Position numbers and translations under genes: made by a program. A stretch of DNA of 9,981 bases from a virus (taxonomy: Duplodnaviria; Heunggongvirae; Uroviricota; Caudoviricetes). Each line of letters starts with the position of its first letter. The stretch's first letter is position 1. The DNA lies in IMG/VR virus record IMGVR_UViG_2541047944_000001; one strand, given 5' to 3'. Below, one piece after another: positions 1 through 9,981 of this stretch. The notes under the pieces are model-generated. The model saw only the letters and a list, made by a program, of their open reading frames with translations. It did not search any database and was not told the DNA's origin.

Positions 1-288
1 CTACCGCCGCAACCGTTTCGGCTTCTTCCACTGGTAAGTATTTTTCGCGCTCTCCCTCCGTTGTTGAGAACGGCGACGGTATGCCAGCAACTCAAGAACT
101 CTGGTTCGTATGTTGCGCATATCCACGCCGTTAAGCTCAATACCGTCACGGCGCATCACATCAGCCACCACACGCGCGTAATTTTCAGCGGTGACGGTAT
201 CCGGCTGCTTGGCCTGTTCGTCAGCCAGCTGGCTGATTCCACCAGCACGGCGGATTAATCGCAGTATTTCAGATTCAGTCATTATCAT
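1..288 (-). CDS. Hypothetical small protein (95 aa) with a strongly basic C-terminal tail; downstream of and translationally coupled to the small terminase gene
   Basis: Complete ORF (ATG at 288, TAG at 1..3). Its start overlaps the stop of the upstream gene (285..287). C-terminus RRRSQQRRESAKNTYQWKKPKRLRR is Arg/Lys-rich. No recognisable catalytic motif. Confidence 0.45.
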   Translation of the reverse strand: MIMTESEILRLIRRAGGISQLADEQAKQPDTVTAENYARVVADVMRRDGIELNGVDMRNIRTRVLELLAYRRRSQQRRESAKNTYQWKKPKRLRR

Positions 289-770
289 GCCTGTTTTGCG
301 ACCTCATTCACTACGTCATTTTTTACCATCCGGCTGATAATCTGATTACACAAATCGTCAATAATTGACTGCACTCTGTTTACTGCCATCGGTTTAAGCC
401 CGGCATCACGTGCCAGAATATTGGGGAGTTTTGCCAGTTCCTCGCTTACGATTTCCCCCCATATAGCCATCTCTTTTCGCACATCATCGGCGGGTATGAG
501 TTGCGCCGTTTCCTGTTCGAACTTGAGGCGCTCACGTTCGGACTGATACCAGGCCTTACGGTCATGTGGCTCCATTTCTTCCAGTGATGCCGGAACGGGA
601 AGATCAAGAAAACAGGTCAGAATGTCAGTCACCCGATAGAGTTTCAGCTTGTCATGCCCTCCGGCTGGCTGGATGTTTTTCAGCCTTGCCGCCGCAGTCT
701 GACGACATATTCCCGCTATCGCCGCCAGTTGATTAATGTTCAGCATCAGATTTTTCAGTTCTCGATCCAT
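285..770 (-). CDS. Terminase small subunit, Nu1-like (N-terminal HTH DNA-binding domain), 161 aa
   Basis: The ORF track gives 285..857, but the ATG at 770 is preceded by GGAG (ctGGAGcgggtATG), so I trim to 770. The N-terminus LNINQLAAIAGICRQTAAARL is a helix-turn-helix followed by an acidic/coiled region, the same layout as lambda Nu1-type small terminases. Position next to the capsid gene fits a packaging module. Confidence 0.55.
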   Translation of the reverse strand: MDRELKNLMLNINQLAAIAGICRQTAAARLKNIQPAGGHDKLKLYRVTDILTCFLDLPVPASLEEMEPHDRKAWYQSERERLKFEQETAQLIPADDVRKEMAIWGEIVSEELAKLPNILARDAGLKPMAVNRVQSIIDDLCNQIISRMVKNDVVNEVAKQA

Positions 771-923
771 ACCCGCTCCAGAATGTTTTAAACATGCATC
801 TTGCGAACAACTTTCAGAAGAGGTCAAAAAATGCGCTATATGTTGAGCATAAAACAAGCAAAATTAACATACTAAAAATAAAAACACTTAAAATTCAATA
901 TCATAGAAAGATGATGATGACGA

Positions 924-1008
924 ATGAAAATGCAAAAACTAGCCTTTTTCCGCGCCGCTCCCGCCCCGTGGCAGACCACTCCACCGGGAGGACCCGTAAA
1001 AAAGGCGG
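924..1008. repeat. 85-bp direct repeat, copy A (84/85 identical to copy B at 3459..3543), between the capsid stop and the terminase start
   Basis: Direct comparison of the two stretches ATGAAAATGCAAAAAC(T/C)AGCCTTTTTCCGCGCCGCTCCCGCCCCGTGGCAGACCACTCCACCGGGAGGACCCGTAAAAAAGGCGG. Contains nested dyad symmetry (GCCTTTTT...AAAAAGGC; CTCCCG-cccc-GTGG-cagaccact-CCAC-CGGGAG). Confidence 0.9.
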
Positions 1009-1026
1009 CTGTCGCCGCCCTTGTTG

Positions 1027-2940
1027 TCATGCTCCACTCGATTTCAGTAATCCGCGATAATCGAGGGCCGCGACACCTGCATCTATGCGTACTTTCCAGG
1101 CGACACCATCAACAGTAAAGCCCACCTGCTCCTCAAGATATGGCGTATCCATCCCATCAAGATAAGCGACTTCTATTGTGTCCATCCCCTTAGCTGCGGC
1201 TACATACCATTCCTTGCTATTGGCCTTATCAAGACGTGGCTCAACAATTACTTCTGCCATATCTTTCACCACGTTAATGATGCCGGGGTTCTGATTGATA
1301 GTGCTCTCATCACCAACCGGAAAGACTGATGACGATGACAAAATGGCGCGACGCGCGGCAGATTCCAGCGCGGCAGGGACCAGAACAAAAGCAGGGGTAA
1401 TATTCAGGGAGTCGCCGTTAGCATCCTCCTGGAGGCGCATCCGCTTACGGGCTTCATCAAGCCCCACCATGTCCATATCCTTCGCAATAAGATTTTTATG
1501 ATCGGCATGGAATAACGCTTTACCATCCGTAAACTTGCCGTTGCTGGTTAACAGGAGATAAACCAGATTGCCAACTGTTCTGGCGGCTGCGCGTCCCATC
1601 GCCATGGGGATTGTAGTTAACTGGGTCAGGTCATCGTTGATAATGGCCTGACGGGTAACGGAAAAAATATTCCCGTACGTGGCCAGCGCAATAGGTACAC
1701 CTTTATCGCTGGTGGTGATGTATTTATATTCCGCACCTTCCGGTACTTTATCCAGCTTTGAAAAACCATTCAGACCAACGCGCTTTGCTTCATGAAAGTT
1801 TGAAAGCGAACCGGTACGCGTCCATTTCTGGAACGTTTCGCCGCTGTCCTGCCAGCCTTTCAGTACAGATTTTTCAGCCCCACCAGCCAGAATATGAGAA
1901 AAATCACTGCTGCTGTGTGTAAAAGCCGCATTAACAACCTGCGAGCGATTAATAAAACCGCTCACAGTGATACCACGATCAACCAGTGATGCCTGGGCCA
2001 TTTCAAAAAGGCTCATCATCGCGTAAGGGTTGCCTCGTTCAGGGCGTTCATACCCAAGACGGGAATAAAGCCCCTGACGAATTGCATCACCTGTTATGTT
2101 TCCGTTTCCGGCATAGATATGAGGCGGGGTATTTTTATTGGATGGCGTGGACTCGCGCCCCAGCTCGTTCAACAGCTTTTCACGGGCCATTTCCGGTGTA
2201 CATGATGCATCTTCCAGACACGCCATTTTGATCCCGTCGTAACGACTGCCGAACAGGCTAAACACTTCACTTATTCCATTGATGCGCTTCTGTTCATTAC
2301 CAGCAATATTTGCCGCTCCCTGTGGCGGTGTAATCATTCCTTTAATGGTTTCCGGCATATGTAAAAAATCTCCTGTGCGTTTCGATTCAATTCGCGCCAT
2401 TGCTCTGACGGATGGCAACAATTCATCAGCAAAACCGTGCTTAAGGCATTCTTTCCCATCCATCCAGGTTTCATCCTCCAGCATGGCGGTAATTTCCTGT
2501 GCTGATTTGCCCGTTTTTCTGGCATAAGCAGGGATTAACACGGTTTCCACCTTATCCAGCAAATCAGCATAATCACGCATATCGCCAGCATTTCCGCCAG
2601 AGATCCCCCACGGTTTATGGATCATCATCATGGCGTTCTCCGGCATCACTACACGATCGCCAGCCATTGCGACCACCGAAGCCATTGAAGCCGCAACACC
2701 ATCGATATAAACCGTAATGTCTGCCGGATGATTCCGTAGCAGGTTATAGATGGCGATGCCTTCAAACACATCACCACCTGGTGAATGGATCCTCAGATTG
2801 ATATGTGAAACATCGCCAAGGGCTTTCAGGTCTTCCGCGAACTGCTTTGCAGTAACACCGAAGCCGCCAATCTCCTCATAGATAGATATATCCGCCGCTC
2901 CACGAACATCCGCCGCCTTAATGGTGTACCAGCGATTCAT
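1027..2940 (-). CDS. Fused prohead (ClpP/S14-like) maturation protease and HK97-fold major capsid protein, 637 aa
   Basis: N-terminal ~190 aa carry the ClpP-like prohead protease signature (IHSPGGDVFEGIAIYNLL...VYIDGVAASMASVVAMAGDRVVMPENAMMMIHKPWG). The C-terminal ~400 aa resemble HK97-family major capsid proteins (...ATYGNIFSVTRQAIINDDLTQLTTIPMAMGRAAARTVGNLVYLLL...). Long uninterrupted ORF with ATG at 2940. Confidence 0.85.
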   Translation of the reverse strand: MNRWYTIKAADVRGAADISIYEEIGGFGVTAKQFAEDLKALGDVSHINLRIHSPGGDVFEGIAIYNLLRNHPADITVYIDGVAASMASVVAMAGDRVVMPENAMMMIHKPWGISGGNAGDMRDYADLLDKVETVLIPAYARKTGKSAQEITAMLEDETWMDGKECLKHGFADELLPSVRAMARIESKRTGDFLHMPETIKGMITPPQGAANIAGNEQKRINGISEVFSLFGSRYDGIKMACLEDASCTPEMAREKLLNELGRESTPSNKNTPPHIYAGNGNITGDAIRQGLYSRLGYERPERGNPYAMMSLFEMAQASLVDRGITVSGFINRSQVVNAAFTHSSSDFSHILAGGAEKSVLKGWQDSGETFQKWTRTGSLSNFHEAKRVGLNGFSKLDKVPEGAEYKYITTSDKGVPIALATYGNIFSVTRQAIINDDLTQLTTIPMAMGRAAARTVGNLVYLLLTSNGKFTDGKALFHADHKNLIAKDMDMVGLDEARKRMRLQEDANGDSLNITPAFVLVPAALESAARRAILSSSSVFPVGDESTINQNPGIINVVKDMAEVIVEPRLDKANSKEWYVAAAKGMDTIEVAYLDGMDTPYLEEQVGFTVDGVAWKVRIDAGVAALDYRGLLKSSGA

Positions 2941-3146
2941 TATTCCCCCACCGATGCAAAACCATTCTGATTAAGCCAGGTGTTTACGGCATGTCTGACA
3001 ATCTGCGCCACACCTGGTAATGGTTTGTCAGGATGATGATTTATATGGTCGATCCTGTACTGCTTAAGGCGCATAACGGTCTGCGCATCCAGATGAACGG
3101 AACCACCCCTGATATCGCCCGTGTTCAGGTCATTAATACAACTCAC
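2940..3146 (-). CDS. Hypothetical small protein (68 aa), first gene of the capsid operon; possibly a ribbon-helix-helix-like regulator
   Basis: GTG start at 3146 preceded by AGAGGAAG at good spacing. Its stop overlaps the capsid ATG at 2940. The beta-strand/helix pattern (SVHLDAQTVMRLKQY ... VAQIVRHAVNTWL) is compatible with a small DNA-binding fold, but this is weak. Confidence 0.4.
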   Translation of the reverse strand: MSCINDLNTGDIRGGSVHLDAQTVMRLKQYRIDHINHHPDKPLPGVAQIVRHAVNTWLNQNGFASVGE

Positions 3147-3247
3147 AGTAACTTCCTCTTACTGACTAAACTGTGCACATTATTGATCGATAAAAGTGGT
3201 AGATAAACATATTTCTATCACAAAAATAGATTAATGAGATTCAGACA

Positions 3248-3271
3248 CAAAAAAGCCGGAGAAAATCCGGC
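3248..3271 (-). terminator. Putative intrinsic terminator (minus-strand orientation) between the replication module and the capsid operon
   Basis: Stem GCCGGA (3255..3260) / TCCGGC (3266..3271) with a 5-nt loop. On the minus strand the stem is followed by a run of T (plus-strand A-run 3248..3254). Confidence 0.4.
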
Positions 3272-3458
3272 ATAAATATCCCGCCATCTGAACACGTTTT
3301 GACACAGGCAACTCCACCTGGCAGGTGAAAAACAGATTTATTTATATATTTCAATTAATTGCAAACTGGTCTAATGACAGGGAGAAAAAAATATTGTACA
3401 GGTGAAAACAGAAATAACTTTTAATTATCAATAAATTATCACACATGCTGCCGCCGCC

Positions 3459-3543
3459 ATGAAAATGCAAAAACCAGCCTTTTTCCGCGCCGCTCCCGCC
3501 CCGTGGCAGACCACTCCACCGGGAGGACCCGTAAAAAAGGCGG
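3459..3543. repeat. 85-bp direct repeat, copy B (84/85 identical to copy A at 924..1008), between the iteron region and the capsid operon
   Basis: Same sequence as copy A with one mismatch (C vs T at repeat position 17). Flanking sequence diverges immediately on both sides. Confidence 0.9.
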
Positions 3544-3691
3544 ATTGCTCCGGCTTCTGTTACTCGTTGCTTAAAACGGTATGTTATCCCCGTACGGATC
3601 ATCATTCCCCGCCTGTTGTTTTGGTGTGCTTCGCTGTCATAGGCTTTATCTCACAGCAGTAAATTAAAATTTTTGCGTTTTAACCCTTCAC

Positions 3692-3914
3692 CTGTTCACC
3701 TTTTGATATTTTCTCTTTTAATTCATAATGTTAAGGGGTGAACAGTTTCACAAAAACTATTCACCAACTGTTCACCACTGTTCACCCTTGAAGCTCAATA
3801 AACAATCAAAAAGGTGAACAGTGAATAGTTTGGTGAACAGTTCATAAATAACTGTTCACCCTATAATATACTGATATAAAAGATATTTATGACAGGGTGA
3901 ACAGTGGTGAACAG
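3692..3914. repeat. Iteron array: nine perfect copies of CTGTTCACC / GGTGAACAG in both orientations plus degenerate copies; putative P4-type replication origin (ori or crr-like) with an AT-rich spacer
   Basis: Forward copies at 3692, 3768, 3778, 3852; reverse copies at 3737, 3813, 3832, 3896, 3906; a degenerate ATTCACC at 3759. An AT-rich stretch at 3861..3892 could be an unwinding element. To my recollection TGTTCACC is the octamer bound by phage P4 alpha protein at ori and crr. The array lies immediately downstream of the alpha-like gene. Confidence 0.75.
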
Positions 3915-3927
3915 TTATTCCATAAGT

Positions 3928-5745
3928 TTAATTTTTGCTATCGTCATTAGTGACCGATACACATGATGGCATCCAGTCTTCTGATTCCTCCGTCAGTGTC
4001 ACGTTTGAACGCAAACCGTGCTTCGTTTTCCGTTTCATATACTCCCTGCCATATTCCGCCATTGCCCCCGGCATATCTTTACCGAAGCGCGTCAGTGTTA
4101 CAGGTTTACCAAACCCATGTGCCCTCATATAAGCCAGATAGGCATGATAGAGATACCTGCGTGGGCTGAATGGCACAATTTCAGCATTACCCACTAACAG
4201 GCCATCACACATTACCGACGCCATGAGATAGCCGCAGAAGTCCACCAGCGAATCCCCCTCTCGCTTTATCGCCAGTGCTTCTTCAGATTTCTGCTGCTCA
4301 TATAACAGGCGTCTGGCTTCGTCCTGGTCAGCAAACCGTGTAAGCAGATGGCGAATCACTACCGCCAGCTCACCTTCTATTTTTTCCGCCAGCATTGGAT
4401 CGCGTTCGTTCTCCGGTACAACTTCCGAAAAATTGAATATCACCCGACGACGTGAGATCCCCCCGCTGCGGTCACTGAATGACATGGCGTTATTGTTAAC
4501 CGCCAGCACTACTGCCGGAATACGCGTTGAGTAGGGGGCTTTGTGTTTCGGGTCAATTGCCACCTTGTCACCGCCTGTAATGGCCTTAATCCCTGCCCCA
4601 TCACCAGCGTAGCGGGTCATATCCGGCATGATAATCAGCGAAAAGCCAACCACTAACGCGCGTTCCCTTGCATCTTCCAGCGCCTTCATGCTTGCCGATA
4701 CTGTGTTGGCCTTACCCGCCAGCATGGTGCAAATCTCCGCCATCACGCTTTTACCACTTCCCCCTGGACCTGTTACCTCAATGAATAACTGCCAGTCGTA
4801 CCGGTTCGCCAGCACCATGAATAAGGCAGCCAGTACGCGATCCGCCTTGCGGTCATTCTCAGCCACCGAACGGCGTAACCACTTCCAGAAATTCGGCGCA
4901 TGTGTTGCCAGCGTTTCCCCCTCTGCTGGTGGGCTGAAAGGTAATTCACTGGCAATTAACAACCAGTCGTTTTTGTTATGCTCCCGAAAATTACCTGTTC
5001 TGGTATCAAATACCCCGTTACTGAATCCAATCAGGTTACGGGCTGTATTCCCCATTACAGGCAAACTTAACTTCATGGTATCGACCGCCGATTTAATGGC
5101 GTTCTGCGAATAGCTGATCTCCGCATCAATGAAAATCTGCGCCATAGCACGCTGTAACTCTTTATCCTGAACCGGCTCCCATACAATGCCGTTGTAATGG
5201 TGAACAGTGTCAGAGTCGGCATGAATCGCCAGTTCACCGCCATAATGTGCCAGGAGAACTTCGCCGCGTTGACTTGCTCCCATCTGGTTAAGCGCCAGTG
5301 ATGAAGCGTTATCGTCTTTTACCCGCTCTTTTTTCTTTACAGGCAGTTCAACTACCTTTTTCTTTTCCGCCAGCTCTCCCCGCTCACGTTCCAGATATTC
5401 GCGCCAGTTCTCCCGTTTCTGGCTGTGCATTCCTTCAGGATAATAATCAGCATCCCTGACACCTGCCGCTGCCAGTTTCTGCCCGATGGTATTAACAAGC
5501 CCCGGACGCAATAACCCCGCCTGGTAGAGACGCACGCGATAGCGTCCGTCCGGTACGATTTGCAGGTTGTCCAGTTCGGCAAGTTGTTGCTCTCCAAGCC
5601 AGACAGGTGGCACGTTATCGCCAGCCAGTCGCCCGTCCTGTTCCTGCCACTGCTTCGCATGTGCCCACGCATCACTACCCGCAAAAATGATGACTTCCGT
5701 CATTTTGTCACGCGGCTGGTGTTTTAAATTTGGCGCTTTTTTCAT
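3928..5745 (-). CDS. Replication initiator, P4 alpha-like primase/helicase (SF3 helicase domain with Walker A GPGGSGKS), about 605 aa
   Basis: Long ORF with Walker A motif (VTGPGGSGKSV) in the second half, typical of the P4-family phage/plasmid primase C-terminal domain. The first ATG at 5745 is preceded by GGAGAG and overlaps the stop of the upstream ORF (ATGA); the track's start at 5760 is a GTG. Adjacent TGTTCACC iterons support the call. It is shorter than P4 alpha (777 aa, from memory), so the N-terminal primase domain may be reduced or different. Confidence 0.85.
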   Translation of the reverse strand: MKKAPNLKHQPRDKMTEVIIFAGSDAWAHAKQWQEQDGRLAGDNVPPVWLGEQQLAELDNLQIVPDGRYRVRLYQAGLLRPGLVNTIGQKLAAAGVRDADYYPEGMHSQKRENWREYLERERGELAEKKKVVELPVKKKERVKDDNASSLALNQMGASQRGEVLLAHYGGELAIHADSDTVHHYNGIVWEPVQDKELQRAMAQIFIDAEISYSQNAIKSAVDTMKLSLPVMGNTARNLIGFSNGVFDTRTGNFREHNKNDWLLIASELPFSPPAEGETLATHAPNFWKWLRRSVAENDRKADRVLAALFMVLANRYDWQLFIEVTGPGGSGKSVMAEICTMLAGKANTVSASMKALEDARERALVVGFSLIIMPDMTRYAGDGAGIKAITGGDKVAIDPKHKAPYSTRIPAVVLAVNNNAMSFSDRSGGISRRRVIFNFSEVVPENERDPMLAEKIEGELAVVIRHLLTRFADQDEARRLLYEQQKSEEALAIKREGDSLVDFCGYLMASVMCDGLLVGNAEIVPFSPRRYLYHAYLAYMRAHGFGKPVTLTRFGKDMPGAMAEYGREYMKRKTKHGLRSNVTLTEESEDWMPSCVSVTNDDSKN

Positions 5746-6041
5746 TTCTGCTCTCTCCACGCGGCAATCATGTTTTTCAGTTCCTGTAGTTTTTTATCCA
5801 CATCCACACGTGACACATGGTTATTTCTGGAAGTCGGGATTTCCCGCCGGAATCTGCAAATAAAGATCTCCACGTTCAGCGAACTAAGAAATGAATATCC
5901 ATCACGGATAAAATAAACACGGTCAAACATCAGTTCTTTTACCGTTACTCTGTTACCGTTCTTATCCAGATAAATAGCGCCGGGGATAATTTTGTGGTGT
6001 GCATAACCGCTGGCAGTCAAGCCAGATAAATATGTTCTCAT
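5742..6041 (-). CDS. Hypothetical protein (99 aa), translationally coupled to the primase gene
   Basis: ATG at 6041 with GGGGA upstream; stop overlaps the primase start (ATGA). AT-rich relative to the primase. No recognisable motif. Confidence 0.5.
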   Translation of the reverse strand: MRTYLSGLTASGYAHHKIIPGAIYLDKNGNRVTVKELMFDRVYFIRDGYSFLSSLNVEIFICRFRREIPTSRNNHVSRVDVDKKLQELKNMIAAWREQK

Positions 6042-6047
6042 GATTAT

Positions 6048-6368
6048 TTATCCCCGATTTGAATCAGTATTCGCTTTCTTTATGGCATTTAATGCATCTG
6101 TGGCATTTTCAATGGTGCACCGTAACGAAATATCAAACTGCCCAAGCATTGCCAGTAACAAACCGATATTACCCATATCAATGCGCATGGCCTTTTCGTC
6201 ATAGTCCTCATTTTCTGACGCATGCCACATCAGGCTACCAATTGACGCAATACCCATTGATATATTGTCAGTAGCCCCATCCGCAGCGGAATAAACCTTT
6301 TTAGCAATATCATGCTCACAGTTAAAATGCGGATTAATCAGGTACTGGTAATTTGACATATCAGGCAT
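6048..6368 (-). CDS. Hypothetical protein (106 aa), in an operon with the HNH gene and the primase
   Basis: ATG at 6368 overlaps the HNH stop (6361..6363) by 8 nt. AT-rich. No recognisable motif. Confidence 0.5.
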   Translation of the reverse strand: MPDMSNYQYLINPHFNCEHDIAKKVYSAADGATDNISMGIASIGSLMWHASENEDYDEKAMRIDMGNIGLLLAMLGQFDISLRCTIENATDALNAIKKANTDSNRG

Positions 6369-7038
6369 GGCACACCCCCTGACGAATACGGGCGGCGAAT
6401 ACCATCACGCAGCCAGCCGGAGATTGCTGGCGTGCTTCCTGTTCGCTGGTGGCCTCAATGGTAATCACGCGCGGTTGTGCCGTGCTCAGGGCGATAAAAC
6501 GCCAGATATATTTATTCAGGTTGTGCGATTGCCCATTTCCTTCCCCGTGATTAGCAAATTTACCGTGATGCTGCTCGCGAAATTGTTTTACTACTTGTTC
6601 GGCCTCACAAATATCCGCAAATAGGCCTAGTCGATGGTTTTTTCCGTTAACACGACATTGGGCGCGCCATTTTTTATGCTGCTTACTCCAAGTAACTCCC
6701 TTGACTCCCGATGTATTATTTTTTGCCTTTAATATGTTGTATTGATTTTCTGCGCTCGTTGCTTCGCGGAGGTTAGTAATACGATTATCACTGCGTACCC
6801 CGTTGATGTGATCAATTAAATTTGTAGGCCATTTGCCATAAACATAAAGCCATGCAAGTCGGTGCGCTGCATAAAGCCTGTTTTTAACCCCAATCTGAAT
6901 ATAACCATGACTGGTAAGACACCCAGCAACACTACCATTTTTAACGTTTCTGGCTGGTGGAACTCTCCATGTAAAAACGCCTGTTTCAGGGTCGTAATGC
7001 AGGGTTTCACGTAAGTATTTTTGGGTTAGTTCAGCCAT
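6361..7038 (-). CDS. HNH endonuclease with AP2 DNA-binding domain (homing-endonuclease-like), 225 aa
   Basis: HNH_3-type motif (AHRLAWLYVYGKWPTNLIDHINGVRSDNRITNLREATSAENQYN) followed by an AP2-like domain (SGVKGVTWSKQHKKWRAQCRVNGKNHRLGLFADICEAEQVVKQFREQHHGKFA). ATG at 7038 preceded by GGAGG at 7-nt spacing. Confidence 0.8.
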   Translation of the reverse strand: MAELTQKYLRETLHYDPETGVFTWRVPPARNVKNGSVAGCLTSHGYIQIGVKNRLYAAHRLAWLYVYGKWPTNLIDHINGVRSDNRITNLREATSAENQYNILKAKNNTSGVKGVTWSKQHKKWRAQCRVNGKNHRLGLFADICEAEQVVKQFREQHHGKFANHGEGNGQSHNLNKYIWRFIALSTAQPRVITIEATSEQEARQQSPAGCVMVFAARIRQGVCHA

Positions 7039-7135
7039 GACACGCCTCCAATGTGGAGATACTGGAATAGTCAGGGTGAGTTTGGGTATGCTGTGTTCCA
7101 GCCATAATCGTTACTCCTGTTAACGGTTTGGTTAG

Positions 7136-7179
7136 ACGCCCCGTTACTGCTCCTACAGTGCGGGGCGTTGTTTTTTGTG
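7136..7179 (+). terminator. Putative intrinsic terminator in plus-strand orientation with no obvious upstream plus-strand gene
   Basis: Perfect 8-bp stem ACGCCCCG (7136..7143) / CGGGGCGT (7161..7168) with a 17-nt loop, followed by TGTTTTTTGTG. It lies in the divergent intergenic region between the HNH gene and the RHH gene. Confidence 0.45.
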
Positions 7180-7195
7180 TAATGGTAAGTACAAT

Positions 7196-7235
7196 GGTAA
7201 TTACCATGTAACTATAGTAATCAAGGGTAATTACC
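7196..7235. promoter_or_regulatory. Two copies of the perfect palindrome GGTAATTACC (within a 14-bp direct repeat GGTAATTACCATGT), candidate operator sites overlapping the RHH gene start and the divergent promoter region
   Basis: Palindromes at 7196..7205 and 7226..7235, centre-to-centre 30 bp (about three helical turns). A TATAGT -10-like hexamer (7213..7218) lies between them. The second palindrome abuts the ATG at 7236. Confidence 0.5.
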
Positions 7236-7409
7236 ATGTCAACACCATTAGAGAAACGATCGCCACCATACCAAATGCGACTACCAGAAGAATTTAGAGC
7301 GCAACTTGAGGAGGCAGCCAAGGCAGACGGCGACACCTCATTAGCTACTTGGATTAAACGAATACTCCGCAAAGAATTACAACAGCGCGGTATCGAGCCC
7401 AAAGGCTGA
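7236..7409 (+). CDS. Ribbon-helix-helix (Arc/MetJ-like) DNA-binding protein, 57 aa; candidate repressor; not in the supplied ORF track
   Basis: Translation: MSTPLEKRSPPYQMRLPEEFRAQLEEAAKADGDTSLATWIKRILRKELQQRGIEPKG. The segment YQMRLPEEFRAQLEEAAKADG...SLATWIKRIL matches the Arc-family beta-strand/helix/helix pattern. A strong terminator follows at 7504..7536, and palindromic operators sit at the start codon. Only a weak SD (AAGGG). Confidence 0.6.
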   Translation: MSTPLEKRSPPYQMRLPEEFRAQLEEAAKADGDTSLATWIKRILRKELQQRGIEPKG

Positions 7410-7503
7410 CAGCCAACCAGCAAGCCAGCACACTGATCACATTGCCCACCAGCCGCAAATGTGGCATTGTTGGTGATGCGTTCAAGTTTAGTGTGTATCC
7501 ATT

Positions 7504-7536
7504 GGCGACCGCCCCCGGTCGCCTTTGTTTTATGTG
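7504..7536 (+). terminator. Intrinsic terminator for the RHH transcript (plus-strand orientation), located between the convergent RHH and AlpA-like genes
   Basis: Perfect 8-bp GC-rich stem GGCGACCG (7504..7511) / CGGTCGCC (7516..7523) with loop CCCC, followed by TTTGTTTTATGTG. Confidence 0.6.
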
Positions 7537-7550
7537 CCATCACTCCCCCC

Positions 7551-7739
7551 TTACACCGTCTGCGTTCTGCGAGTGGATGCAAGATAAGCATCGAGATCAG
7601 TGCGCATATACAGCACTTTGCGCCCCAGCTTATGAAAAGGGATTTTTACCTTGCCAGTACACGCCCAGTTAGCAAGAGTCTGGACACTTACCCCCAAATG
7701 CTCGGCAGCTTCTTTGCGGGTCATCTTTTCTAAATGCAT
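7551..7739 (-). CDS. alpA: AlpA / excisionase-family helix-turn-helix DNA-binding protein (MerR-like HTH_17), about 62 aa
   Basis: MTRKEAAEHLGVSVQTLANWACTGKVKIPFHKLGRKVLYMRTDLDAYL is a typical excisionase/AlpA winged-HTH. The ATG at 7739 has GGTGA 5 nt upstream; the track's start at 7748 is a GTG. Position between integrase and replication genes is typical of P4-like and PICI elements. Symbol given by family resemblance only. Confidence 0.7.
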   Translation of the reverse strand: MHLEKMTRKEAAEHLGVSVQTLANWACTGKVKIPFHKLGRKVLYMRTDLDAYLASTRRTQTV

Positions 7740-7811
7740 GAGTATCACCGTATACTTCTGATTAAGAACAGGTATACGTTATTTAGCGATGGGGAAGTCT
7801 TGAAGACAGGA

Positions 7812-7841
7812 AAACCAGATACAAAATCGCATATCTGGTTT
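7812..7841. promoter_or_regulatory. Perfect 10-bp inverted repeat AAACCAGATA-N10-TATCTGGTTT upstream of the AlpA-like gene, followed by two CTGGATT direct repeats at 20-bp spacing; candidate operator or recombinase arm-type sites
   Basis: Arms at 7812..7821 and 7832..7841. CTGGTTT at 7835 and CTGGATT at 7855 and 7875, each 20 bp apart. About 70-100 bp upstream of the alpA start. Confidence 0.35.
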
Positions 7842-7880
7842 ACATGGCTGAAATCTGGATTACAGAGGATAAAACTGGAT

Positions 7881-8567
7881 TTATTCTTTGTCTCCAATAA
7901 CTAACTTAAAATCCCTGTTTTTTTGCGGGGATTTTGGATTCATCCCCGACTCCTTAAGCCATCTCTCTATAGTCCCAACTACAGGGACATCATTCCATTT
8001 ATTGCGTAAGTGCGCGTATATCTCTGCGGATAGCCCGGGTAAACTGGCATTAGGGTATTTTTTCCAAGTGTTACAAGCTATAGATAACGCTGTTGATTTA
8101 TGCCTGTTTGTTTTTCCTTTCTTTGCTTTACTACGGTCTTCACTGATAATTTTCTTTACATTAGCTATATCACGTACTGATTTTAATAAATTCTCCGACA
8201 CTAAAATCGCATATCTTTCACGTAACTGATCTGCAAGTCTGTTGAAACCAAGAACTTCAAATATAATGGCAGCTTTCAAAATATCATTGAATTCTGAATA
8301 TGCACTATTAAATTTTTTATCAAAATCATCTCCATACCCGGCACATACAGAAATATTAACCTTTAAATCCTTATTTTCTATCTCTGACGATAATGATAAT
8401 CTCTCCTCCAGAGACATTTTAGATGGTGTGATATTTGCCATATCGCATATCGTTTTTTTTACAAAAGAAGACGCCAGTTCATATCTAATATAATCTGCAA
8501 TAGTATTCATATCCTTCGCATCATTATGGTCAAATTCTATTGCAGCAATGATTTTATTTTCTGACAT
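7881..8567 (-). CDS. Hypothetical protein (228 aa), AT-rich cargo gene immediately downstream of and overlapping the integrase gene
   Basis: ATG at 8567 preceded by GGTGG; overlaps the integrase stop by 14 nt. By eye roughly 35% GC against roughly 50% for neighbours. No recognisable catalytic motif. Confidence 0.7.
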   Translation of the reverse strand: MSENKIIAAIEFDHNDAKDMNTIADYIRYELASSFVKKTICDMANITPSKMSLEERLSLSSEIENKDLKVNISVCAGYGDDFDKKFNSAYSEFNDILKAAIIFEVLGFNRLADQLRERYAILVSENLLKSVRDIANVKKIISEDRSKAKKGKTNRHKSTALSIACNTWKKYPNASLPGLSAEIYAHLRNKWNDVPVVGTIERWLKESGMNPKSPQKNRDFKLVIGDKE

Positions 8568-9981
8568 TCAAACCACCATTTGAATTAACGATACTAAATA
8601 GTAATGCGCGTTTCTCACTGTCACTCATACTCTCCAGTGCGGAAAGCAATTGCGCATCGATAGATTTTTTACTCTCCACCAGCCCGGCATGTTCCAGAAT
8701 TGCCCGTTCTATCCGTGACGCTGGCTCCAGCAGTTCATCAGCACCAAAATGTAAATACCCCTGCGTTACGTCAGCACTTCGCATAGTACGGTGATTCATC
8801 AGGCGCTTGAGGATGTAATTGCCCACGCCCACCAGTTCGGCAACCGTTCCGAACGTCCGGCGTGCATCGTGCCATTTGAATGGTACAGGGGAGAGCATTT
8901 CATCGTTCGACTCTGGAACAGTAGCCGCGCTTATCCGGTCTATGATGTGCCGTGTTTCCTGAATCACTCCCTTCACACCAGGAAACACCAGAACATCATC
9001 AGCGTTTTTTATTTTCAGTCGGCGGTGGAACATTTCCCGCAACGTATCAGTAATCGGTAATTCGAGCGGATCCCCGTTTTTCGTGGTGTCTATCCAGAAA
9101 AAACGACCGCCCATATTCACGCGATCCCACGTAAGGCCAAAAATTTCTGATTTCCTCAGTCCGGTAAAAAGCGCCATTTCCACGGCATCGCATACCGTCA
9201 CCGCTATATCATCCCTTTCCTGTTCGCCCTGGTCGCGCACAGCAGCTACAGCAGCAAACCAGCGGGGAAAATCATGCAGGCGGATACGTTCCGTTTTTCT
9301 TACCGTTCCGTGCCACTGGCGCTTGGTGCTCAGTACCAGAGTCGGCGGATCCGGTAAAAGAGTATTACCCGCATCATCACGGTAATGATCATGCGCAAAC
9401 CGACACACAGCACGTAGCGCACGCGCCCATAAATCGGCCTGTGCCTTGCTTCCTGTACCAACCCCAGCCCGTAACGTGGTTTTATCAGCACCGAACCATA
9501 CAGCCCCATCAGTGATGGCCTTATGCCGTTGTTCCACCCGTTCGCGGGAAATACTGGCGAGGGTATGGGCCATCCAGTCACCGGAATAATTCTGTAATAT
9601 GCTGCGGTACTGTTTTTCTGTGGCGGGTTTCAGGCGGTGGCCACGATTTTTTACGTAGGCGTCAATCGCCTCACTCAGCGTTATCATGGCCTTGTTGTTA
9701 GTGCGCTTTGCTATGTTCGGATTTATCCCCGTTGTGGCGACTTCGCCAAGGAGTTCCATAGCTTTAGCCCGGGCATTATCCACGCTCAGATCAGGAAAAC
9801 GCCCCAGCGTTGCACGAATAAATTTTCCGTTACGCTTACGGGAAATGCAGAAACTTTTCACACCAGACGAACCTACACGGACACGCAGCCCGTTAACCTC
9901 CGTATCACCATATTCGACCTGTCCATGTTCCGGCGTTGGCAGTTCTGCAATTTTTACTTTAGAGAATCTGAATAATTTCAC
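8554..9981 (-). CDS. int: Tyrosine recombinase / integrase, P4-type (N-terminal arm-binding domain plus C-terminal catalytic domain); 5' end at the window edge
   Basis: N-terminus (...GLRVRVGSSGVKSFCISRKRNGKFIRATLGRFPDLSVDNARAKA...) matches the P4-integrase arm-binding domain pattern. The C-terminus carries a catalytic-type HxxR motif (WHDARRTF) and a candidate Tyr (QGYLH). The ORF reaches position 9981 with a GTG as its first codon, so the true start may be here or just beyond the window. Confidence 0.9.
   Translation of the reverse strand: MKLFRFSKVKIAELPTPEHGQVEYGDTEVNGLRVRVGSSGVKSFCISRKRNGKFIRATLGRFPDLSVDNARAKAMELLGEVATTGINPNIAKRTNNKAMITLSEAIDAYVKNRGHRLKPATEKQYRSILQNYSGDWMAHTLASISRERVEQRHKAITDGAVWFGADKTTLRAGVGTGSKAQADLWARALRAVCRFAHDHYRDDAGNTLLPDPPTLVLSTKRQWHGTVRKTERIRLHDFPRWFAAVAAVRDQGEQERDDIAVTVCDAVEMALFTGLRKSEIFGLTWDRVNMGGRFFWIDTTKNGDPLELPITDTLREMFHRRLKIKNADDVLVFPGVKGVIQETRHIIDRISAATVPESNDEMLSPVPFKWHDARRTFGTVAELVGVGNYILKRLMNHRTMRSADVTQGYLHFGADELLEPASRIERAILEHAGLVESKKSIDAQLLSALESMSDSEKRALLFSIVNSNGGLNVRK

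Follow-up and report, generated by a model that had tools for sequence, protein, structure and literature searches.

Why does a small virus-derived DNA carry the same 85-bp segment twice, on either side of its capsid genes? The window considered here is a whole stretch of 9,981 nt from the virus record IMGVR_UViG_2541047944_000001 (IMG/VR; Caudoviricetes). It is a phage satellite of Escherichia coli of the phage-inducible chromosomal island (PICI) type, with gene content and order as in Gram-negative PICIs. For the repeat, the initial annotation had offered a late promoter or activator site, a packaging-related signal or a structured RNA. The second of these options appears to be right: by alignment, the segment is very probably the cosQ-cosN core of a lambda-type cohesive-end packaging site (cos), present in two copies. 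We consider it likely that this satellite of ~11.3 kb holds two direct cos cores that share their core sequence and differ in the adjoining cosB, both of them probably active. This reading is based on sequence homology, collinearity, synteny, conservation and distribution, from which we infer cleavage, the pairing of terminases with cosB and the effect on helper range.

The 85-bp repeat and its likeness to lambda cos

A repeat search of the window returned one family, 924-1017 against 3459-3552 with a spacing of 2535. Direct counting within it bore out the annotated repeat of 924..1008 (copy A) and 3459..3543 (copy B), equal at 84/85 positions. The sole mismatch, on the plus strand, is T at 940 versus C at 3475. 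The runner-up direct repeats in the window were 15-33 nt long and 62-87% identical, and a near-perfect 85-bp repeat within a 10-kb window is far beyond chance. The complete island L008 contains exactly two copies, so that a search of the full element for more of them, as the annotation had proposed, added none.

The positions given for the copies were also correct. Copy A falls after the stop codon of the ClpP-protease/capsid fusion (2940->1027) and before the start of the DUF1441 gene for a homologue of the small terminase subunit (TerS; 770->285), and copy B has the iterons (about 3690-3920) on one side and orf68 with the capsid gene on the other, all of these genes being on the minus strand. 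Because all long open reading frames (ORFs) are on that strand, the repeat is to be read as its reverse complement. The plus-strand ORFs beginning MKMQK (924-1118 and 3459-3662), which had been judged non-coding, do exist; they diverge where the repeat ends and are antisense to all genes. Both edges of the repeat are as sharp as described, with differing bases at 923/3458 and at 1009/3544. They are not the edges of a mobile repeat, however, but the points at which a conserved cosQ-cosN core meets differing flanks: identity gives way on one side to two unrelated cosB flanks and on the other to upstream contexts that differ between the copies.

On the minus strand the repeat reads TTTTTTACGGGTCCTCCCGGTGGAGTGGTCTGCCACG GGGCGGGAGCGG CGCGGAAAAAGGCT.GTTTTTGCATTTTCAT, and the right end of lambda joined to its left end reads TTTACGGGTCCTTTCCGGTGATCCGACAGGTTACG GGGCGGCGACCT CGCGGGTTTTCGCTATTTATGAAAATTTTCC. 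The alignment of the two covers cosQ (GGGTCCT), the bases flanking the nick sites and the segment past cosN, in the minus-strand pattern ...TTTACGGGTCCT.CCGGTG...ACG/GGGCGG....../CGCGG..., where slashes bound the cohesive-end segment. As in lambda, cosQ is followed by cosN and then by the beginning of cosB, at matching spacing, and the blocks GGGTCCT, ACG/GGGCGG and CGCGG are common to both. Aligned with lambda, mEp460 and 606R10, copy A (924..1008, minus strand) comprises cosQ, a spacer, cosN and 31 bp past the cohesive-end segment; copy B (3459..3543, minus strand) was assigned from its identity to copy A and the lambda alignment.

The cosQ-like heptamer GGGTCCT lies at 989..995 in copy A and at 3524-3530 in copy B (minus strand in both). 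It is kept in 12/13 aligned cos cores, among them lambda and both sites (cos1 and cos2) of EcCICFT073, a related E. coli PICI whose two cos sites have phage-like cosQ and cosN and were shown by experiment to work (Fillol-Salom et al. 2018, PMC6092414; 2019, PMC6739421). The distance from cosQ to the first cohesive-end base is 23 nt in both copies and 24 nt in lambda. The predicted 12-nt cohesive-end segment of cosN, GGGCGGGAGCGG, corresponds to lambda bases 1-12 and occupies 955..966 in copy A and 3490-3501 in copy B, again on the minus strand. Column for column, ACG/GGGCGGGAGCGG/CGCGG stands against ACG/GGGCGGCGACCT/CGCGG in lambda; the flanks ACG and CGCGG are conserved, whereas 6/12 cohesive-end bases differ.

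The repeat matched 37 lambdoid phage records and was about 95% identical to the cos region of mEp460/606R10-type lambdoid phages, between the lysis genes and terS. In vB_EcoS-606R10 the match (1095-1200) falls between Rz and terS (terS at 1315), and in the prophage L080 it falls between the lysis genes and a DUF1441-terL-portal-ClpP/capsid string. The match therefore occupies the cos position of lambdoid phages. As in lambda, the site stands directly upstream of a small-terminase gene.

Two predicted cosB flanks and one small-terminase homologue

Identity between copies A and B ends 43 bp from the first predicted cohesive-end base, at the cosN/cosB junction. Lambda TerS binds to cosB, the element that confers specificity, whose R3 spans bp 50-65 (PMC9026076). 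The flank of copy A (771..923, minus strand) is collinear with 606R10 and mEp460 from cos to the terS ATG and is a predicted cosB, here called type A. Its conserved block TCATCATCATC (910-920) is found at bp 47-57, the position of lambda R3, and terS begins 153 bp past the core, with the cos-terS order seen in phages.

The 153-bp flank of copy B (3306..3458, minus strand) is a predicted cosB of another type, B, collinear with L080 from cos to the terS ATG. It is about 92% identical to L080 over about 240 bp, the homology ending at the L080 terS start, and this cos-to-terS interval is present in hundreds of E. coli genomes. The flank holds two R-like direct repeats, CTGTTTT(T)CACCTG, with core 8-mers at 3399-3406 and 3322-3329, and one match to the integration host factor (IHF) consensus at 3426-3438. 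Of type-B terS itself the island retains, by homology to L080, a remnant of the first codons (3272..3305, minus strand) with the ATG changed to GTG. This remnant is not kept as an ORF and is frameshifted in the islands L084 and L085; past it come a terminator-like hairpin (3271-3255) and then the capsid operon. The cosB sequences of the window are unrelated to the R3-I1-R2-R1 array of lambda.

The DUF1441 protein of the island (161 aa; 285..770, minus strand) was 71% identical to the annotated TerS of 606R10 and matched PHROG 141, 'terminase small subunit', with an E value of 7e-57. On these similarities it is a type-A TerS homologue, whereas the TerS of lambda is Nu1. A literature search on DUF1441 found nothing relevant. 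We also considered the protein as an Rpp and dropped this idea, as it had no BLAST similarity to RppA (c1503) and no relevant match among PDB sequences; a crystal structure of RppC has been published. The N-terminal and central parts of the island TerS match phage TerS, and its C-terminal tail differs (...SRMVKNDVVNEVAKQA), unlike both phage types, which end in acidic ...EE tails. The tail of lambda TerS contacts the large terminase subunit (TerL). If the tail does so here, the island TerS may act in mixed oligomers with helper TerS and not alone.

Phages with type-A and type-B sites have near-identical capsid fusions (98.9%) and similar TerL (87% identical), whereas their TerS proteins are 42% identical and differ in the N-terminal helix-turn-helix regions. 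The two phage lineages would thus represent two packaging specificities on a common nicking core. This resembles lambda and phage 21, which have one cosN and differ in cosB and in the TerS DNA-binding domain (Feiss-lab literature): type-A and type-B phages likewise share the cos core, TerL and capsid and differ in cosB and the N-terminal region of TerS. The contrast is that both presumed specificity elements occur here in one small satellite genome.

In lambda, initiation of packaging needs cosN and TerS-bound cosB, and packaging proceeds from cosN towards terS. For termination, cosQ and cosN of the following cos are required, and this step has low efficiency as long as the head is far from filled. 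By homology with lambda, the large terminase of a helper would nick the strands 12 nt apart at cosN, leaving the predicted cohesive end GGGCGGGAGCGG at 966->955 and 3501->3490 of the window, and cosQ upstream of cosN would be needed for termination. Copy A could be served by the island TerS, alone or mixed with helper TerS, recruiting helper TerL, or by type-A helpers. Copy B would be recognized directly by the TerS of type-B helpers; its cosB appears to be copied from a second phage lineage with nearly the same head genes and TerL and a different TerS DNA-binding region, of whose terS nothing but the remnant is present. Since both sites have cosQ and cosN, either should be able to terminate packaging. 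From copy A, packaging would pass terS, orf95, the attachment (att) junction, int and the replication genes, with copy B reached at about 8.8 kb and copy A a second time at about 11.3 kb; from copy B, it would reach copy A at 2.5 kb.

Weighing the function of the second copy

The initial annotation had taken the conservation of the repeat to imply function. This is borne out in part; the near-perfect identity of A and B is not a general constraint. In the sister islands HS13-1, E10, A1_181 and WCHEC035148, the A and B cores differ at 6-7 of 85 positions (in HS13-1, A and B are 89% identical over 94 nt). Because those copies differ to this extent while the window copies are nearly identical, the 84/85 identity is, judged from these comparisons, due to recent gene conversion in the window lineage. 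Here the cosQ-to-cosN part of copy B is identical to copy A, and a B-specific G (minus strand) has been kept at 3475.

Whether copy B is functional with a specificity of its own is close to an even question, and we lean slightly to the negative side. Its strongest competitor is that copy B is a non-functional cos scar that persists by hitch-hiking. We hold this to be unlikely. According to such a history, an ancestral cos-B with terS-B stood after the replication module, and the capture of a 'capsid operon - cos-A - terS-A' block removed terS-B. The reduction of terS-B to a few codons, with its altered start and its frameshifts in two islands, is what this would leave behind, and blocks of late genes are commonly acquired by satellites from their helpers (bioRxiv 10.1101/2022.07.18.500453). 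Against it, the cosB of copy B has intact R-like repeats, and its columns are less variable than the third codon positions of capsid and terS [7/153 (4.6%) versus 129/798 (16.2%); Fisher p = 5e-5], in a test that is weakened by its sample, six related two-cos islands that are not independent of each other.

Distribution speaks on both sides. Differing integrases accompany the block ssb - copy B - orf68 - capsid - copy A - terS - orf95 at the three chromosomal sites where it was found, and in one case the primase differs too. The capsid allele occurred in about 195 complete E. coli genomes, and at least 155 of these (roughly 80%) had the copy B arrangement; a useless 85-bp direct repeat around 2.5 kb should be lost easily. 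A distant island, L086, is inserted in the terL gene of a prophage, and its capsid gene shows about 68% nucleotide identity. At both of the corresponding positions it carries a cos-like site, in direct orientation; the two have diverged, and each has a hairpin with a T-run, cosQ and cosN. Three islands (L081, L082 and L009) do without copy B, as a scar would allow, and in EcCICFT073 cos2 is not required for transfer (PMC6092414).

These absences belong to a set of findings that weigh against the favoured reading. In L082 (FDAARGOS_1259), where copy B was lost or never gained, a clean 272-bp indel between two CCGSCTTTTTT motifs takes it out, in L081 a HEPN gene takes its position, and the Kluyvera island L009 has a single cos at the copy A (downstream) position; copy B is dispensable for island survival. 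The cosB of copy A, which would be the main site, varied at 24/153 columns (15.7%) and is thus no more conserved than third codon positions. The host prophage of L086 is of type B, yet a type-B cosB is found at neither cos of that island. Deletion of cos2 from EcCICFT073 raised transfer and did not lower it (PMC6092414), which cautions that a second cos might be without effect or even carry a cost. None of the matching phage records ends at the predicted cohesive end (in mEp460, cosN lies about 160 bp before the record end), and a literature search for the cosN 12-mer GGGCGGGAGCGG found nothing relevant.

The islands with other arrangements offer some further observations. L086 (E. coli O121:H19 16-9255) and L087 represent a satellite of the same backbone within a prophage terL gene, without terS or rpp; helper-embedded satellites of this kind have been described (bioRxiv 10.1101/2022.07.18.500453). 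The two cos-like 12-mers of L086 differ (GGGCGGAGGGGC versus GGGCGGGCGGCG) and would give mutually incompatible ends. That a satellite copies the cosB of its helper was considered for L086 and found unsupported, given the type-B prophage and the island cos sites without type-B cosB. In a cross-species survey of 71 primase loci, two carried a lambda-type cos, in one copy each, and most relatives in Xenorhabdus, Photorhabdus, Proteus and Serratia had no cos detectable by the profile used. This survey tells little about the two-cos state, and the informative comparisons come from E. coli genomes.

Hairpins followed by T-runs recur at these sites. A GC-rich hairpin, GGCGGC-GACA-GCCGCC (1004..1019, minus strand; terminator scan and folding), with six Ts (998-1003), lies directly 5' of the copy A cosQ and is likely the terminator of the capsid gene. 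A weak hairpin, CGGA-GCAA-TCCG (3541..3552, minus strand), with six Ts (3533-3538), lies 5' of the copy B cosQ, after the ssb remnant, and is homologous to the hairpin 5' of EcCICFT073 cos1. Such a hairpin and T-run 5' of cosQ are common to copies A and B, EcCICFT073 cos1 and the two L086 copies and are lacking in phages. A third hairpin, GCCGGATTTTCTCCGGC with six Ts (3255..3271, minus strand), came up in the scan as intrinsic-terminator-like; it stands between copy B and the capsid operon and doubles as one end of the 272-bp indel in L082. L082 (7157-7168, 9398-10187) also carries an insertion of about 790 bp, containing fragments of tail-protein genes, exactly at the hairpin 5' of copy A, and the hairpin/T-run junctions look like hot spots of recombination.

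The same scans bear on the promoter option, a helper-activated late promoter or activator-binding site ahead of both morphogenesis units. Seen along the gene strand, each copy does stand upstream of a morphogenesis gene, and dyad symmetry is typical of protein-binding sites. Yet in phages this sequence makes up the cos region, where no promoter is known to lie, and the terminator-like hairpin at 3271-3255 parts copy B from orf68. A scan of the minus strand from 700 to 4000, which does not cover activator-dependent promoters, found no sigma-70-like promoter. The segment upstream of orf68 that is conserved across genera is another motif, CTACCACTTTTATCGATCAATAATG (3178-3202, minus strand), with counterparts in the Kluyvera island (TTACCACTTTTAGTGATCAATTATTG) and in L086 (TATTACTTTTATCGATCAATAATG), and it is not present upstream of terS. 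The capsid operon probably has its true promoter or operator in this motif, and we regard a promoter function of the repeat as very improbable.

Still more improbable is that the repeat encodes a structured RNA, be it a small RNA or a long hairpin. The nested dyad symmetry reported for the repeat is present but not conserved among homologous sites. Folds of single sequences had a modest stability advantage over shuffled ones (z = -1.7 to -2.8), partly due to the flanking terminator hairpin, while the consensus fold of 13 homologous cos cores (RNAalifold) reached -4.1 kcal/mol with a covariation term of -0.23 and one compensatory change, so that no conserved fold emerged from the folding and covariation check that had been suggested. 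Conservation sits instead in blocks of primary sequence. An Rfam scan of the whole window gave sub-threshold matches only, the best overlapping one at 25.6 bits against a gathering score of 50; these (a eukaryotic long non-coding RNA, a plant microRNA and PK-repBA) were treated as chance. Finally, a generic dispersed repeat, such as a repetitive extragenic palindrome (REP) or bacterial interspersed mosaic element (BIME) unit, a miniature inverted-repeat transposable element (MITE) or an insertion sequence (IS) end, would explain the sharp boundaries and internal dyads but has a negligible chance of being correct, as the repeat occurs at a median of one place per genome, all matches inspected were phage or prophage cos regions or satellite islands rather than unrelated contexts, and neither target duplications nor a transposase were found.

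The host island and its place among satellites

The ORF list and Pfam domain assignments put all genes of the window on the minus strand, from the integrase to orf95. In this order they are the integrase (9981->8554; domain search), an AlpA-like helix-turn-helix regulator (HTH_17; 7748->7551), an HNH_3 nuclease fused to an AP2 domain (6361-7038), a DUF4222 protein between the latter and the primase gene, a D5-type primase (D5_N/Pox_D5; 5760->3928), orf68 (3146->2940; PHROG 4934), the ClpP-protease/major-capsid fusion (2940->1027; CLP_protease and Phage_capsid_4), the DUF1441 gene and orf95 (288->1; PHROG 1561). Both cos sites flank the capsid operon of orf68 and the capsid fusion (1027..3146). 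The capsid fusion was 57% identical to that of the cos-matching phages. The products of orf95 and orf68 are conserved satellite/phage proteins of unknown function, and orf95 shares 73% identity with the final ORF of EcCICFT073.

Islands in E. coli chromosomes that match the window are sited between a tRNA-Ile gene and nfeF. The HS13-1 island ends on either side in a 49-nt direct repeat (att), the two being perfect copies that take in the tRNA 3' end and lie 11,382 bp apart; the window version would measure about 11.3 kb after allowing for two indels. Integrase, AlpA-type regulator, primase with iterons, capsid gene and att repeats are all present, as in Gram-negative PICIs, and the island also agrees with these in size (about 10-20 kb) and in lacking lysis and tail genes. 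The backbone is common with that of EcCICFT073 (L007 15931-26655), at 49% identity for the primase and 73% for the last ORF.

Some features of the island stand apart from the cos sites. Directly downstream of the primase gene, the repeat search found dense GGTGAACAG iterons in both orientations (about 3920->3690), the expected PICI replication origin. At about 3619-3630 the window lacks about 584 bp found in E10 and HS13-1, containing a hypothetical gene and most of ssb, and only the last 60 or so bp of ssb are left upstream of copy B. The HNH_3/AP2 ORF takes the slot of an Icd-like gene in sister islands; this domain pair has been noted in a 'Bro network' satellite protein (bioRxiv 10.1101/2022.07.18.500453). 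Three direct copies of (C)AATGGTAATTACCATGT, each with the palindrome GGTAATTACC, lie at 7180-7239 in the divergent region between a 57-aa plus-strand ORF (7236-7409) and the leftward operon, and look like operators for the island regulator.

Two-cos satellites are already known from EcCICFT073; the arrangement found here is unusual and does not define a new class of element. The two elements are of the same kind, with two cos sites close to capsid and packaging genes. In EcCICFT073 each of cos1 and cos2 confers plasmid transduction, and their double deletion abolishes transfer (PMC6092414, PMC6739421). Its cosN sites, located at L007 25559(+) and 26309(-), are inverted around rppA, whereas those of the window are direct, 2535 bp apart and placed around the capsid operon. 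EcCICFT073 has Rpp, and its cosB is unlike any phage cosB; the window island has a TerS homologue, no Rpp homologue by its cos, and two phage-like flanks collinear with phage cosB regions, so that its packaging does not fit the Rpp type. The cosN 12-mers differ as well (GGGCGGGAGCGG versus GGGCGGCGACCT). Two putative cos sites have also been reported for SaPIbov4, a Staphylococcus aureus pathogenicity island (SaPI; PMC6092414). We found no description of a direct two-cos layout around a capsid operon in the literature searched.

Other satellites follow one of two routes: P4 and cos-type SaPIs (SaPIbov5) carry the cos of their helper, and pac-type SaPIs encode their own TerS (bioRxiv 10.1101/2022.09.08.507074). 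Copy B resembles the first and copy A with its own terS the second, here on a cos and not a pac system. Unlike in P4 and the SaPIs, both would occur together in one element. We therefore put forward, as a tentative and rather doubtful proposal, that one satellite joins two strategies, its own TerS with a cognate cosB at copy A and mimicry of the cos of a second helper at copy B. If this is true, the island could be packaged by two terminase specificities of otherwise near-identical helpers. The direct layout would add termination points, with segments of about 8.8 kb and 2.5 kb per 11.3-kb unit. Three units and one A-to-B segment would make about 43 kb, near the 42-45 kb of helper genomes, so that the fit of concatemers into helper-sized heads could be eased, and capsid-less deletion derivatives are predicted.

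For this family of satellites, the repeat can be annotated with confidence as the packaging signal, which fixes the predicted ends of virion DNA. The likely helpers are those lambdoid phages that have both a ClpP-capsid fusion and a DUF1441 TerS. Enterobacterial satellites can apparently pair a phage-derived TerS with a phage-like cosB and keep a second cos with a cosB from another lineage. Should the second site be active, cis-acting cosB modules, exchanged by recombination at a conserved cosQ-cosN core, would determine helper range; this would be relevant to predicting which phages mobilize which islands and their cargo and to engineering PICI-based delivery particles.

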